Shown here piece after piece: positions 1,141 through 7,800 of a stretch of 10,767 nt of DNA. The position numbers and the translations under genes are program-made. The DNA is taken from the IMG/VR virus record IMGVR_UViG_2579779035_000009. One strand, written 5' to 3'. The stretch's first letter is position 1. Every line of letters starts with the position of its first letter. Below the pieces are notes generated by a model that did no database searches, was not told the origin of the DNA, and worked only from the letters and a program-made list of their open reading frames with translations. This DNA comes from a virus. Taxonomy: Duplodnaviria; Heunggongvirae; Uroviricota; Caudoviricetes.

Positions 1141-1233
1141 AATCTGAATAAATTACTGGCCTGCTATTTTTCTTAGCAACCATATTTAGCAGCAAGCCAG
1201 CAAATCTGAATGATTACAGATGCTGGCCTGCTG
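1141..1233. repeat. Intergenic repeat cluster: two imperfect direct repeats plus a 13-bp imperfect inverted repeat
   Basis: AATCTGAAT..TTAC..CTGGCCTGCT occurs at 1141-1166 and again at 1203-1232. CAGCAAGCCAGCA (1190-1202) is the reverse complement of TGCTGGCCTGCTG (1221-1233) with one mismatch and an 18-nt spacer. Read directly from the sequence. Confidence 0.55.
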
Positions 1234-1267: not shown

Positions 1268-1798
1268 TTACTTACTTTGTTCTGGTTTCTCTTCATTCTT
1301 ATTGTGCACTTCCACTTTGGGTAATTTATTAAAAACCAGATTTTCTTTTTCAACCAGAGTCATGACTTCTTTGGTGATATCAGCTGACTCGTTATGCGCA
1401 AGCACAACACCTGAAGACAATACGGCAATATTTTTAGGATTGTCTTTTCTCCATGTGCCTATGGCATTATCTATCGCACGGGATAACACCATTTTTGCGC
1501 TATTTTCCTCAATAACATATTGTCGTTCCAGTTTTTGTCTGGCATCAAGAAGCAGCGCCTCTTTATTCGCGTTATCTGCGAATGTTTTTTGCGCATCCTC
1601 ATATCCTTTTTCAAGAATACTCTTAACCTCATTCAGATGCTTTTTGGCCATGTCTCCGGCGGTAGACTGATTATAAATAGCATCGATATTAACAACTGCA
1701 ATTTCTTTTGACTTTTTCATATAAAAAACACCAGTAAGTACAATCAGCAACAGCAGCACTACTGCATTAACAACAGAAAATTTCATTACAGAACTCAT
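1268..1798 (-). CDS. Skp/OmpH-family-like periplasmic chaperone paralog with N-terminal hydrophobic anchor or uncleaved signal (176 aa)
   Basis: N-terminus MSSVMKFSVVNAVVLLLLIVLTGVFYMKK is one roughly 20-residue hydrophobic helix with no obvious AXA cleavage site. After it, KEIAVVNIDAIYNQ resembles the Skp N-terminal strand (IAIVNxxxxxxQ), followed by a K/E/Q/A-rich helical middle. The C-terminal AHNESADITKEVMTLVEKE resembles the Skp C-terminal motif (AYNSSDVKDITADVLKQVK, recalled from memory). AGGG Shine-Dalgarno 8 nt upstream of the ATG; 47 bp downstream of the autotransporter stop on the same strand. Confidence 0.55.
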   Translation of the reverse strand: MSSVMKFSVVNAVVLLLLIVLTGVFYMKKSKEIAVVNIDAIYNQSTAGDMAKKHLNEVKSILEKGYEDAQKTFADNANKEALLLDARQKLERQYVIEENSAKMVLSRAIDNAIGTWRKDNPKNIAVLSSGVVLAHNESADITKEVMTLVEKENLVFNKLPKVEVHNKNEEKPEQSK

Positions 1799-1815
1799 TA
1801 TGACAACCCTGAGGT

Positions 1816-1836
1816 GGCAGGAGGGCCCCTCCCGCC
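1816..1836 (-). promoter_or_regulatory. GC-rich intercistronic stem-loop between autotransporter stop and chaperone RBS
   Basis: GGCAGGAGGG (1816-1825) pairs with CCCTCCCGCC (1827-1836). As minus-strand RNA this gives up to about 7-9 G-C-rich pairs including one G-U wobble. No U-tract follows on the transcribed strand, so it is not a canonical intrinsic terminator. Confidence 0.4.
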
Positions 1837-1845
1837 CCTGTGTGA

Positions 1846-4800
1846 TTAGAATATATATTTAATACCCAGCATTGCCTGGGCATCACTGTACCCTTTATCG
1901 CCAGCCTGAACACCAACATTGCCCCAGACACTCAGGTTATCTGACAATTTACCCTGAACACCCGTTTTGACTTCAGCAATATTTGTAGCTCCGTCCTGAC
2001 TGAGTGCCGTATTATCCATTTTGACACCCCAGCTCCGTGTATTATGGATCCAGTTAACTTCCACAAATGGCTCAAACTGATGCGCCTTATTATCATCAGA
2101 CGCACTCTTACCTTTCAGGTAAGTTCTGACGCCCAGACGACTCTGGATATTACCGTCTCCGCTGAGCTGAACTTTCGTGCCATTCTTCTCCGTATGCTCA
2201 CTGGCTCTTACATTCATCCACGTGATCTGGGACTGCGGCTGAATATACCAGTCATAGTGGCTACCCTGGCTACCGATAAATTCGCCGGCTTTAAAGGTAT
2301 AACCCGCTTCCACTGAACCGGTAAATCCACGGGATTTCCAGGACTCCGCAGCCAGTTTTTCACCATTAACGGTATTATTAAACCATCCGTACTGGATCCA
2401 GGTATCGACATAAGCCCCGTTGTCACTACCGTCATTCTGCTGCCACGTTCCGTATAAACCGGTGCTGTATCCATTGATCGCACCTTTAGATTTATATCCC
2501 GAAAGCGAGGATGTCGTGGAACTCTTCTCATTTCCATAACCGGCCATAATCCCCAGTTGCAGACGGTCCTGACCGTCAGTCCATTGCGCAATGCTGCCAC
2601 CCAGTTGCACAACATAACGGTTACTTTGCGTATTCAGCTGTGAACTGCTGTCCTTCCAGCGATTATGACCGCCGATATGACGCATCCACATACTTGTTGC
2701 TTTCTTCTCACCAGTAAACACATCGGTATAGTAAGTTTCCCCCTCACGATCGTGCATTCTGATGTTGAACAGCGTGTTGGCTGCCGCTATGTTCGCAATA
2801 TAAGAGCCCGCTTCCGGACGATAGACCTTCTGTACAGGTTTATCCGGCGTGGGGTGTGGCTGTGGCTGCGGTTGTGGCTGCGGCTGCGGTTGTGGTTCTG
2901 GCGGCAATTCAGAACGCAGATACCAGTTACCGTCAGTACCACCCGCATTACCTTTATGCAGGAAATATTCCCATGCCCCTGCCACCGCACGGTTCTGCAG
3001 TCTGAAGTTACCGTCAGAATGCCCACCGACATGCACAATCTCAATGCCGTCAGCGGTCTGAGCCCCCTGGCCCCGGACATTATTCACCACCACGCCGGTA
3101 TCACCGGAGGTGTTACCCGTGACAATCAGTTTGTCAGTGGCAGAAGTATCATCCCCCAGCACGGTATTGATAATTAACGTACCGCCACCGGTGTAATCGC
3201 CATTTACGGTCAGGGTATTTCCTGTCTTACCACCGGCCAGACGAATGACGCCGGTATTGGTCAGTGAACCAACCGTAAAATTGCTCGCCTCTGCCGTTTC
3301 ATAACCTGAGAGAGCATTCAGTGATGCCAGTGTTCCCTGGTTATTAACCTGACCCGAAACGGTCCCCAGCCCACTCAGTGTGCCGCCATTAAGAACATGA
3401 ATGTTTTTGGATCCTGACAACGTCGCACCAGCGGCACGGGTGACTGAATCATCACCGACAATCAGAACGCCATTCTCAACCGTGGTATCACCGGTATAAG
3501 TCAGCTCATGATTAATAATCAGATTACCCGCCCCCTGTTTCACCAGAGCGCCGGAGCCAGTAATATCATTCTTCAGTAACCAGTTTCCACTGGCGGTAAG
3601 CCAGGTGACACCATCACTGTCAATCAGCCCGGTGCCCAGGTGTTTTTCATCTGAAGCCCGCAGAGCAGCATCTTTCTGCACACGGAATTCACCGCTGAAA
3701 TTACTGTTATCCCCGGAAAGCGTCAGATCAGTGGTGTTCAATATACCCACTGAACCTTTTCCGGAAAGCGATTTACTCAGGTTACTGCTGACTCCGCTAC
3801 CGTCGGCGATATCAATCGCCAGGCGATCACTAAGGCTTTCAAAGCTGATGGAACCCTGGCTTCCCAGCCCCTGTGCGCCGTTCATTTCAACCAGCGCCCC
3901 CTGGGTAAGGCTGGCATTACCGGTAAACCCGATATTGGTGCCATGTACCGTCAGGTCGCTGCCCGTGACAGCCAGCGTTCCCTCACCGGACAGCACGTTG
4001 TTTTCAATGACGCCACCATTATCATCGCCCGGCTGACGCTGCGTGCCGCTGACCGTTAGCACACTACCGCTATCAAGCTGAATGTGCGATCCCGTTTCTG
4101 TCTGCAGTACACCGACAGTCTGGCTGTATCCGTTTGTTCTGAAGACGGCATTGCTGGCGACGTTCAGATTACCTGTTGCGCCAAGAACATTGTCATTTGC
4201 CATCTGTAATGTGCCGCTGCGCACCAGCGTATCCCCGGTATAGTTATTACCGCCGTTAGACAGTGTGACAACCTGCCCCGCAGCTTCGATGGCCAGATCC
4301 CCTGCCCCCGTTAACTGTGCGCCAAGATCTGTCTGCAGTCCTTGGGCATTCGCTCTCGGTGTCAGCACCAGCGCTTTATCACCGGTTCCCTGTAAATCCA
4401 GCGACTTCAGCCCATAGCCTATGTACAGTCCGTCACCTTTAATCCCGTCGGAGCTTCCCAGCAGCTTATAGTCATAATTTCCCTGAGCTACAACTTCACC
4501 GCCCTGAGTGACATCAAACGTCTGACTGTGAGAAATAGCCTGCCCGTTTTCATCCACCAGTTGCAGTTGCCCGCCAGTACCGGTGACGGTACCCGCTGCA
4601 TTCACCAGTGTGACCAGGGTCTGCGCATCATCCTGCTCCAGCAAATTCTTACGGGTATCAACAGCCGGAATATCATTAATCACTTCATCTGGCATGGTGA
4701 CCTGAATTGTGCCTTTCCCCCGAATATCCAGCGTACCTGCAGCAGAGGTTTCAATACTGTTGCTGGCAATGGTATCGCCCGGCATAACGGAACCAAAAAT

Positions 4801-7800
4801 CAGCGTTCCGCCATTGAACCCAAGACCGCCAATCTGCTGAACACCGGAGCCAACCGTTGTGATATTCCCGCTTTCAGACATCAGCATTGCATGGGTTAAC
4901 CCGCTCGTATTCAGCCCTTCCAGAGCAAAGCTACTGGTACCCAGCTTCAGAGTTCCGGCAAATTGATCCCCGACGTTATGGCTGAATTCAAAAGCAGATG
5001 TGTCGGCATCAAGACGGGCAGACAGTGTTCCTTTGCCTGTTAACAGTGGATCAAAGGTAAAGTTGCCTGCAACTGCAGGAATAATGGCCAGTTCGCTGCC
5101 CGATTCAATATCGACGGACCCCGGGCCGGTCCCCCCATCGGTCAGCACAAGAGCTTCCTTCAGAGTGACAAGTGAACTGTTCTTCAGCCCGACATGTTCA
5201 AAATTCTGTAGTTTTACAACAGAATCCAGCGTATGAATGGCGTTATCAAAAATCAGGGAATCAGAATCTCCCTGCCCGCCATCCAGCAGGTTCCAGGTTG
5301 CCCCTTCGCCTTTAATGGTGAAGGTGTTCTTCCCGGTACCGGCAGTAACCTGATCAACATGAGCCTTACCATTGAGTGTTACATTATTATTGCCATTTCC
5401 TGCAGTCACTTCTCCTGTCAGTGTGCTGCCATCATCAAATAAAAATGTATTGTTACCCTCTTTTGCACTGACGGTTCCGGTAATACTGCCTTTATTGGTG
5501 AATGTGTTATCACCGCCGTTCAGAGCCACAACCCCCTGAATTTCAGCACCGCTGTCATTCAGTACGGTGGTATTCACTGCGTCATCAAACGCCATTGCAG
5601 TCCCGGTGGCGGACGCAGCTTTAATCTGACCTTTATTGGTAAAGGACTGTGCTTTTGAAGCATCCACTACGGCATGACTCAGAGAAGCAGAGATGAGATT
5701 ACCGCTCTGAACCACTTCACTGGCCGCATTGTTAACCACCAGAGCGGAACCGCCATCGGCCTGTGTAACATTGACACTTGCACCACTCTTCACGACAGCA
5801 CCATCTTTAGTGTTGGCAAAAATACCCGTGCCGCCCGTGCCTTTCAGATTAATGACTAATCCAGCGGAGTCAGACATATCCAGGTTAATATCGGTTTCAC
5901 TTCCGTCAGCTTTCTGGAACGCCAGTGCAATTCCACTGCCGTCTACATTAATAGTGCCGCTGTTGGTCTTGGCCAGAGAAGCAGAAGTCCGCACACCAAT
6001 GCCATCAGCCACATTAATTTCAGTCGTATTGGTTAACTGAATGCCTTCAATTTCTGCACGGTTCTCAATCCCGTGACCGACCGCACCTGCAGCATTAACA
6101 TTGATTTTCGCACCATCAATAACCAGCCCCACAGCCCCTGTATCCAGCAGGATGCCATGCGCATTTTTCTGACCTTCGATCGTTCCCAGGCCACTCCCTG
6201 CCAGGTTCAGTGACGCGCCCGCCCCCAGCTTAATGGCAGCCTCACCATCCACAGCGACGATATCCCCTCCCGTGCTGGTAATCTGAGCGTGTTCACCTTC
6301 AACAAATAATGCAACGCCATTGACCGCTATACGGCTTCCTGTATTTTCAAAACGACCATTATCAACCCAGACGCCGATATTATCTGTACCGGTAGTGAAA
6401 TCAATGTTGCCGCTGTTAATCAACAGTCCCTGATTACGCGTAATAAAGCCCTTGGCATTATTCAGCGGCGAAGAGATATCTGCCTCATTGGTAATAACCG
6501 AGCCAGTATTCGTTTGTGTAATACTGCCATCCAGAGCGTATTCATTTCCGTCAACTTCCGCGACAACAGCGCCATCCCCTACAAGGTTAACTGATGCCCC
6601 CTGTTTCAGCGTCGCTGTCGCACCACCAGTTACATATAATCCCTGAGCCTGAGCCCCCAGGATCTGGAAATCACTGCCAGCATCAGCCAGGACATTGCTC
6701 CCTTTCCCTGTGGCCCAGATACCACGGCTGCCTGTCCCGGAGGTTTTCATCAGCAGAGAGCCGGCCTGTTTTGCCCCATCTTCAATACGGAAAAGTACAG
6801 AACGTTCCCCACTAGCATCCAGCAGAGTTCCCGCTGCAATATTCGTCTTAATGGTTGCACCATCTCCGATAATACGAAAAGCAATCTGATCGGTAATACC
6901 AGAGCCGTCAGCAGCAAAGTTCGGTACTGCCGAACCATCAAGGTTAACAGTCCCTTTATTGCTGGCCTCAACGCCAATCGCCCCCTGTCCCTGCAAAGAT
7001 ATAGTACCCGCGGTCATATTAACCGTTGTTGTTGTACCAGATGCTTTTATACCCGTTGTACGGTTAGCATTATCTCCCCCCTTGAGAACGAGATTTCCCG
7101 AGTTATTAATCGTTGTAACATCTTGTGTGGCATTAGCAATTAGTCCCACACCACCATCCTGAACTGTAATATTTCCGCTGTTGGTACCAACAGCCCCCTC
7201 CTCAACCCGGACGCCCACTGTATTCTTTCCAGTAAAGATGATATTACCGGTATTATTTAGAGTGGCCCCATTACGGGCGATATACCCGGTCACTTTATCC
7301 TGGGTGGAACTTAACTGAGCCCCCGCCGTTAATAGTGTGGTCTTGTCCTTCGGATTAATGAGTTTGCCGGAAATATCATAGCCATTGCCATCCGCAATAC
7401 CGGCTATCGCACTGGCATTATCCATATTGATAATGGCATTACTTTCAATTGTGCCCTGCGCTCCCCCTTCAATTAAAGTCGCTGTAGCCCCCTCACCCGT
7501 CAGGTTGATGGTCATTCCTCCAGACGTTACTGTCGAGGCCACACCGCCATCCGATTTTCCCGTGGCAATAAGTGCATAAGAGTTCTTACCAGACGCCGTA
7601 AGTGCAGAAGAAGCATCTGCAGTTCCCTGGAATGTCGCACCGCTGGCAATACGGAATAATGTTGAGTTTTCAGTGGACACATCCATAACACCGCTTCCGG
7701 TATTATGAATGGCAGAGTCCTTTCCATAAACATAAAAGCCTATCTGATCGCTGCTGCCAAATAGCACTGCACCATTGCCTGACAGGGTCAGACTGCCGCC

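Follow-up and report, generated by a model that had tools for sequence, protein, structure and literature searches.

A Skp-like protein, putatively tethered to the inner membrane, encoded next to the phase-variable autotransporter gene upaE

The stretch of DNA analysed here, IMG/VR record IMGVR_UViG_2579779035_000009 (10,767 nt, hereafter the window), carries on its minus strand an open reading frame (ORF) for a divergent Skp-like protein, located 3' of the gene for the classical autotransporter UpaE. On balance, we favour the reading that this protein is an inner-membrane-tethered accessory holdase for the adjacent autotransporter and that its gene is a third, overlooked member of the phase-variable ipuR-upaE unit. 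This reading draws on a predicted Skp/OmpH fold, on a hydrophobic N-terminus that lacks a conserved cleavage site, and on the recurrent linkage of homologues to type V secretion genes. The ORF itself is a real gene under purifying selection, with dN/dS values of 0.35, 0.14, and 0.34 against orthologues at 79%, 63%, and 43% identity, respectively. The ORF and its parts are as follows.

1268..1798, minus strand: Skp-like ORF, 176 aa plus stop, annotated in RefSeq as 'OmpH family outer membrane protein' or 'membrane protein' (WP_000100043/45)
1781-1798, minus strand: residues 1-6, MSSVMK, ending in K6
1718..1780, minus strand: residues 7-27, FSVVNAVVLLLLIVLTGVFYM, a 21-residue uncharged hydrophobic helix and putative uncleaved signal anchor (model helix 4-27; orthologue conservation)
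1703..1717, minus strand: residues 28-32, KKSKE, a Lys-rich linker from the hydrophobic helix to strand beta-1
1352..1702, minus strand: residues 33-149, the Skp/OmpH-homologous domain (PF03938, model, hhalign, structure search)
1442-1663, minus strand: helical hairpin ('tentacle'), residues 46-72 and 79-119 (model)
1271..1351, minus strand: residues 150-176, a C-terminal extension without counterpart in E. coli Skp (the Skp alignment stops at V149)

Fold and comparison with Skp

The ORF had been read, from the sequence alone, as a Skp-like paralog, and homology at the family level bears this out. A word-indexed homologue search found close relatives only, and a full HMMER scan found at least 217 representative relatives. 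PF03938 (OmpH), whose score for the protein of the window itself lies under threshold, matched 80 of 83 family members at E<=0.01 (best, 4.9e-11). Comparison of the family profile with E. coli Skp in hhalign gave a probability of 93% (E 3e-7), the Skp reference sequence having been checked against the PDB entries 1SG2 and 1U2M, and the four best PDB matches of the profile were all OmpH proteins (E 0.07-0.27). A PDB sequence search with the single protein did not find Skp and returned chance matches only (E>0.2). The NCBIfam matches to RseP and SctR (E~0.01) were regarded as noise, and a sub-threshold Pfam match to DUF1993 (E 0.001) was dismissed as helical-repeat noise.

The AlphaFold2 model built with the HMMER alignment reached a predicted local distance difference test score (pLDDT) of 92.8 and a predicted template-modelling score (pTM) of 0.78. 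It comprises a helix (residues 4-27), a strand (32-36), two long helices (46-72 and 79-119), and a second strand (123-128), so that the body strands stand at both ends with the helical hairpin between them, as in the body-and-tentacle fold of Skp. In a structure search with an earlier, poorer model, Foldseek gave a probability of 1.0 to 1SG2 and 1U2M, with Skp ranked first. These predictions confirm the ORF product as a Skp/OmpH-fold protein, as the comparison with 1SG2 proposed in the sequence-only reading had envisaged. The OmpH-family annotation exists already, and the recognition of the fold is not new.

The protein shares 15-20% identity with E. coli Skp (HlpA/OmpH; 1SG2, 1U2M), from which it differs in its shorter arms, its neutral pI, an extra conserved tail, and the 21-residue hydrophobic N-terminus without A-x-A. 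Residues 28-149 align to Skp residues 19-160 with 18 gap positions that are all confined to the helical hairpin; the arms have about 20 residues fewer than those of Skp (roughly 10 per helix, estimated about 15 A). The protein is also richer in Lys and Glu (K 13.4%, E 10.7%) than Skp (K 10.6%, E 5.7%). Both differences had been suspected from the sequence. The more telling difference lies in the net charge, which is 0 for residues 28-176 (pI 7.05) and +5 for mature Skp (pI 9.5). The 27-residue tail carries a family motif, F156-x-x-L159-P160-K-V162, and a charged end; it is modelled with high confidence, and P160 is nearly invariant among the 83 sequences. Another OmpH-like protein of known structure, CC_1914 of Caulobacter crescentus (4KQT), shares 12% identity and is a structural-genomics entry described only as 'putative'. 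The genes differ in location as well: housekeeping skp maps in the bamA-skp-lpxD envelope cluster, and the Skp-like gene sits outside that cluster, after an autotransporter gene on an island.

The tail and the arms bear on an alternative that we consider unlikely, namely that the Skp fold has been co-opted as a structural adaptor, or to link the autotransporter, peptidoglycan, or Sec/YidC/TAM as a tether or sensor, with the F-x-x-LP-x-V tail serving as a docking motif. A highly conserved, family-specific tail that is absent from Skp and confidently modelled would fit such a role, as would the shorter, uncharged arms and the TpgA-like peptidoglycan-binding protein gene that accompanies the Skp-like gene in trimeric autotransporter loci. 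A precedent is provided by F. johnsoniae SkpA (8GL8), which is among the three best structural matches and is a fixed component of the extended translocon of the type IX secretion system (T9SS) (PMC10994853). SkpA differs from the Skp-like protein in belonging to a type IX system and in its outer-membrane translocon site; it holds the folded SprA N-terminus rather than chaperoning, and its operon is unlinked to substrate genes. Against co-option, the model retains in full the body and arms that make up the client cavity.

The N-terminus and putative membrane tethering

The N-terminus reads MSSVMK / FSVVNAVVLLLLIVLTGVFYM / KKSKE / IAVVNID, in agreement with the single long hydrophobic segment, preceded by one Lys and followed by KKSK, that had been described from the sequence: K6 is followed by the uncharged residues 7-27 and then by KKSKE. 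The best 19-residue Kyte-Doolittle mean is 2.67, compared to 1.17 for the E. coli Skp signal peptide, and the approximate Hessa dG is -1.6 for this segment and +6.2 for Skp. Across the family, the hydrophobicity score fails to separate anchors cleanly from signal peptides, two signal-peptide members also being negative. Therefore, the charge of the flanks and the pattern of cleavage sites were used instead, and cleavage was judged by rules of thumb (A-x-A, -3/-1, hydrophobic length, flanks).

By these rules, the cleavable Sec signal peptide characteristic of canonical Skp is lacking. No A-x-A is present, as had been noted in the sequence-only reading, and VLTG|V is the sole -3/-1-compatible site near the end of FSVVNAVVLLLLIVLTGVFYM. 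This weak site has been lost in three orthologues with Phe at -3 (FTG, FIG, FIS), a residue that signal peptidase I does not accept at this position. The hydrophobic N-terminus itself is retained in orthologues as distant as 43% identity. In relatives with clear signal peptides, cleavage is placed 2-6 residues ahead of strand beta-1 (AMA|TEVAVVDV, AFA|ADYGVVDV, AQA|ASTSVYVVDV), where the protein of the window has FYM-KKSKE. The same design, a 21-28-residue hydrophobic run followed by Lys, is shared by homologues P0027, P0028, P0053, and P0087 and by the gene at locus L012, whose anchor-coding segment exists and is frameshifted in that assembly. Because the orthologues are without a conserved small-x-small cleavage site, the N-terminus is likely an uncleaved anchor.

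These comparisons also bear on the alternative that the protein is an ordinary soluble periplasmic Skp paralogue with an atypical cleavable Sec signal (e.g., LTG|V), acting on UpaE or on outer membrane proteins generally, which we judge rather unlikely. The weak L-T-G|V site is aligned with better ones in P0027 (VGG|W) and P0028 (AGA|L), two undoubted signal peptides (P0044 and P0032) are equally hydrophobic (approximate dG -1.4), and the autotransporter-linked homologue P0174 has a classical AQA|A signal. However, the site is unconserved, Phe standing at -3 in three close orthologues, and a polar c-region is missing, the hydrophobic run (VFYM) reaching the Lys cluster. In addition, all anchor-type members have a positive flank where the signal-peptide members are acidic or neutral, and the lipoboxes of the sister lineages, mostly with Asp at +2, point to selection for tethering.

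About half of the family members carry a lipobox, in which Asp is by far the commonest +2 residue, found in 27 of about 72 lipobox-bearing relatives by a crude regular expression. In Enterobacterales, Asp at +2 is an inner-membrane retention signal. The copy on a Y. ruckeri plasmid reads LSGC-D, and in a rough neighbour-joining tree the E. coli protein groups with this lipoprotein and with mostly Asp+2 lipoproteins, a group in which every member with known context is autotransporter-linked. Among the type V-linked homologues, the N-terminus is a similar anchor or an Asp+2 lipobox, except in P0174, which has a classical signal peptide. The lipoprotein sister group would thus provide independent support for inner-membrane tethering of the E. 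coli protein, and tethering appears to have been selected, since the sister lineages use two unrelated anchoring devices. Taken together, the suggestion made from the sequence that the protein is tethered to the inner membrane stands in part: the lack of a recognisable signal peptidase I site and the anchored and lipoprotein relatives speak for it, and cleavage is excluded by rules of thumb only.

Met27 (1718-1720), the last residue of the hydrophobic helix, is unchanged in 7 of 7 close homologues down to 43% identity, and Tyr26 is present in most of them. Met27 probably lies at the interface and does not serve as an internal start. Initiation at this codon, which would yield an anchorless protein, was rejected as unlikely: no Shine-Dalgarno-like sequence was found upstream, and L012 keeps the anchor-coding segment despite its frameshift.

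Linkage to upaE and to other type V secretion genes

The window is E. coli DNA, and a megablast search against complete E. coli genomes identified the autotransporter as 'phase-variable autotransporter adhesin UpaE'. The elements surrounding the Skp-like ORF are as follows.

1846..9759, minus strand: upaE, a 2637-aa classical autotransporter and the presumed client (ESPR, PATR, AC_1 autochaperone, and beta-domain matches)
1812..1839 (core; spacer region 1804-1848), minus strand: GC-rich stem-loop within the 47 nt that separate the upaE stop (1846-1848) from the Skp-like start (folding; no U-tract after it)
1190..1233, minus strand: strong hairpin 35-78 nt after the Skp-like stop, likely the 3' end of the transcription unit (z -4.5 for a 136-nt region, equalled by 0 of 200 shuffles)
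9784..10404, minus strand: ipuR, encoding a LuxR/GerE-type regulator, at the head of the transcription unit (domain matches; PMC6083910)
10493..10767, strand not assigned: ipuS invertible promoter element (comparison with the CFT073 reference; PMC6083910)

In the published account, ipuR and upaE form a phase-variable two-gene operon (PMC6083910); a third gene is not mentioned there, and the words OmpH, Skp, and chaperone have no occurrence in its text. In the window, 47 nt separate upaE from the Skp-like ORF downstream, and stop-to-start spacers of 47-48 nt after the autotransporter gene were found in five loci, two of them very distant. The spacer contains a GC-rich hairpin of 8-12 bp in eight loci (the window, L002, L005, L011, L012, L024, L026, and L028; z -2.4 to -5.5), with a sequence that varies by lineage and pairing that is maintained.

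No U-tract was found 3' of the spacer hairpin in any locus examined, and the terminator scan was silent. An intrinsic terminator that splits the Skp-like ORF off from upaE was rejected on these two grounds. The hairpin may instead act between the cistrons as a stabiliser or attenuator by which the ratio of adhesin to helper is set; it may cause the two genes to differ in mRNA stability or translation. Strong hairpins occur only 3' of the Skp-like ORF, in keeping with an end of the transcription unit at this place.

For the E. coli strains, the gene order in CFT073 is tRNA-Arg, OmpH-family gene, upaE, ipuR, ipuA, and ipuB. The Skp-like gene lies between tRNA-Arg (argW) and upaE in both CFT073 and 042, with argW only about 440 bp from the ORF, and in the window it is likewise 3' of upaE. 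Among 5426 complete E. coli genomes, the region of the Skp-like ORF is present in 253 and the upaE passenger segment in 249, a co-occurrence of near 1:1.

Of the homologue lineages whose context was looked up, 12 of 13 adjoin a type V gene, 10 of them classical (1 divergent) and 2 trimeric, and the adjacency recurs in relatives of only about 22-33% identity. In S. enterica diarizonae, an integrase gene, a GerE regulator gene, and a gene for a 2632-aa autotransporter are followed by the Skp-like gene, and the latter lies directly 3' of a classical autotransporter gene in L010, L011, L012, L024, and L026. In L025, it is divergent from an ESPR/PATR autotransporter gene. For the trimeric type, metagenomic contigs (L008, 814-5792; L022, 1039-5994; L023, 422-5377) share a recurrent module of three genes: an ESPR/YadA-type trimeric autotransporter gene, a gene for a BamE-OmpA fusion (TpgA-like), and, 3' of both, a Skp-like gene for a transmembrane-anchored protein.

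In a second Escherichia lineage (L004/L005/L006), a 79%-identical Skp-like gene directly 3' of a UpaE-like autotransporter gene is combined with PapB/FaeA-like regulators and has P1/P7-like phage-plasmid genes as neighbours (for a C1 repressor C-terminal domain, DUF968, and an integrase), and the 102-kb E. coli plasmid NZ_CP127299 bears a 75%-identical copy of it. The pair of autotransporter and Skp-like genes appears to move as a module. On the Y. ruckeri plasmid p17Y0159.2 (L019, 1280-7827), the autotransporter gene is followed by the gene for the Skp-like lipoprotein with LSGC-D and then by a SapC-family gene. On p17Y0159.1 (L020, 2706-10039), the Skp-like copy is truncated; split S6-peptidase (SPATE-type) genes lie 1.6 kb upstream of it, and a SapC-family gene follows it here too.

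This linkage strengthens the idea, put forward with the sequence-only reading, that the protein may serve the neighbouring autotransporter. It is extremely unlikely, in our view, that the gene is a hitch-hiker or is decaying without a role for UpaE. Such a gene might be expected from its dispensability for UpaE display in K-12 and from its GC content of 37%, compared to 48.7% for upaE. However, the ORF is under purifying selection and is intact in enteroaggregative E. coli 042 despite the disruption of upaE by IS1, the pair is kept under different regulators, and the type V adjacency recurs at low identity.

Proposed role in UpaE biogenesis

For trimer formation, topology, tethering, the identity of the client, and the holdase activity itself, we infer the following. 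The divergent Skp/OmpH-fold protein would form a trimer with three helical arms round a client cavity, and its uncleaved N-terminal helix would hold it on the periplasmic face of the inner membrane (N-in, C-out), with the five-residue linker alone between the membrane helix and the body domain. It would be made together with the ESPR-bearing, 2637-residue UpaE whenever ipuS is ON, and would capture UpaE (beta-domain and/or passenger segments) soon after its exit from SecYEG. UpaE would then be passed to SurA and BAM. The effect would be to raise the yield of surface display, which would not require the protein.

Several steps of this proposal have counterparts in known systems. Skp is the first periplasmic factor crosslinked to the autotransporter EspP, ahead of SurA and BAM, and both EspP and IcsA show impaired biogenesis upon skp deletion; with an ESPR signal peptide, release from the inner membrane is delayed, and PpiD is an anchored chaperone at SecY (PMC8151025). 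PpiD and YfgM resemble the proposed protein in combining an N-terminal signal anchor with a periplasmic chaperone domain beside the translocon (PMC8151025 for PpiD); they differ in their unrelated folds, in being housekeeping proteins, and in being unlinked to a client gene.

SadB, the helper of SadA in Salmonella, comes close in concept: it is a trimeric periplasmic factor tethered to the inner membrane, its gene is co-transcribed with that of a type V adhesin bearing an ESPR, and surface display is improved by SadB but does not absolutely depend on it (PMC3953254; PMC8151025). In contrast to the proposed protein, SadB has an unrelated fold (MATH-like plus coiled coil), is a lipoprotein rather than transmembrane-anchored, and is known only for type Vc. 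TpgA, the BamE-like plus OmpA-like helper of AtaA in Acinetobacter, is also a periplasmic helper whose gene is co-transcribed with a type V adhesin, and a TpgA-like gene stands between the trimeric autotransporter gene and the Skp-like gene in L008 and L022/L023. TpgA differs in its unrelated fold, its peptidoglycan binding, and its outer-membrane site of action.

A number of observations weigh against the proposed role. The PF03938 score of the protein itself is 27.5 bits, compared to a cut-off of 32.4 (E 4.2e-6), and the AlphaFold2 model is a monomer, with the trimer assumed from homology. Because the protein is neutral and Skp is basic, its client-binding chemistry may differ from that of Skp. 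The linkage frequency is indicative only, as the lineages were picked by hand and not at random and the contigs are short. One of the 13 lineages, L007, is the sole exception, having no autotransporter gene within the 825 bp available upstream. Nor does the linkage extend to the whole family: in the four of five Desulfovibrionaceae loci examined (all but L015), no type V gene was found among the larger neighbouring ORFs checked, which included ATP synthase, alkaline phosphatase, EF-G, or methyltransferase genes. Finally, upaE cloned alone, with a reverse primer ending at its stop, was surface-exposed in K-12 MS427 and gave biofilm formation and extracellular matrix binding (PMC6083910). Because upaE alone is displayed, the Skp-like gene is dispensable in K-12, and therefore a helper can only improve efficiency or matter under native conditions.

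The charges flanking the helix count on the same side. The charge in the E. coli clade is +1 for the N flank and +2 for the C flank (KKSKE), so that the positive-inside rule gives no N-in preference, which agrees with the ambiguity of topology noted from the sequence; moreover, Lys directly after an export signal normally hinders Sec translocation. The excess of charge on the C flank would fit a reversed topology (N-out, C-in), in which the Lys cluster keeps the Skp-like domain in the cytoplasm and the protein acts before export. We regard this arrangement as very unlikely. In P0028 and P0053, the N flank (+3) outweighs the C flank (+1), and the matched Skp/OmpH structures (E. coli Skp, T9SS SkpA, and the outer-membrane chaperone CC_1914) are all of proteins that reside in the periplasm or envelope. 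Because the relatives with a lipobox or a classical signal peptide all export the same domain, the N-in/C-out topology is the one adopted in the proposed role.

Classical autotransporters are usually presented as needing general machinery only, that is Sec, Skp/SurA/DegP, and BAM/TAM, and the only dedicated helpers known to us, SadB and TpgA, serve trimeric autotransporters. In the literature, no description was found of the Skp-like ORF or of a Skp-like gene linked to type V genes. A January 2026 global guilt-by-association survey of genes flanking trimeric autotransporter genes reported only TpgA, SadB, and DUF2827, and its text never mentions Skp or OmpH (preprint 10.64898/2026.01.22.700529).

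As a tentative generalisation, for which the chances are somewhat less than even, the homologues may represent a new family of chaperones with the Skp fold that are dedicated to type V secretion. A signal anchor or an Asp+2 lipid would fix them to the inner membrane, and they would be co-transcribed with giant classical and trimeric autotransporters via a conserved intercistronic hairpin. If so, the protein would be the first periplasmic chaperone known to be dedicated to classical (type Va) autotransporters, and UpaE biogenesis in uropathogenic E. coli would rely on a three-gene phase-variable module. It would offer a genetic handle on how polypeptides of 2000-3000 residues stay secretion-competent from Sec to BAM, as well as on the purpose of the ESPR-dependent pause at the inner membrane. 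Together with T9SS SkpA, it would add to the evidence for repeated specialisation of the Skp scaffold. The UpaE locus of uropathogenic E. coli is best treated as ipuR-upaE plus a third gene, and co-expression of the Skp-like gene might improve heterologous display of large autotransporters.

Other features of the window

For the ipuS element, the segment at 10493-10767 is inverted relative to the CFT073 reference (98.2% match, reverse strand), with 10300-10499 colinear, and the end of the window coincides with the distal repeat of ipuS. In the CFT073 reference, ipuA extends 30 nt into the element, and reading of ipuA into ipuS corresponds to full-length IpuA and phase OFF (PMC6083910). Because the orientation of ipuS is opposite to that of the CFT073 reference, whose arrangement is OFF, the element in the window is probably in the phase-ON state.

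Inside upaE, a tandem repeat of period 18 at 2855-2895 encodes a (PQ)n linker, PEPQPQPQPQPQPQPHP, at the junction of passenger and beta-domain, and is a possible source of length variation. The noncoding region at 917-1267, 3' of the Skp-like ORF, contains repeated CAGGCCAG motifs that form strong hairpins. Further along, a 114-aa ORF lies at 66-410, and another of 66 aa at 542-742 matches HTH_17 weakly and overlaps the part that RefSeq calls torI. These two ORFs suggest a prophage end between the island and tRNA-Arg in the strain of the window.

The record MG710528.1, 'Escherichia phage GER2' (L021, 2447-12531), includes ipuA, ipuR, upaE, and the Skp-like gene. In this record, ipuA is labelled 'integrasse', upaE is represented by two 'long tail fiber proximal subunit' genes, and ipuR and the Skp-like gene are hypothetical. 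It looks like chromosomal island DNA inside a phage record, mis-annotated.

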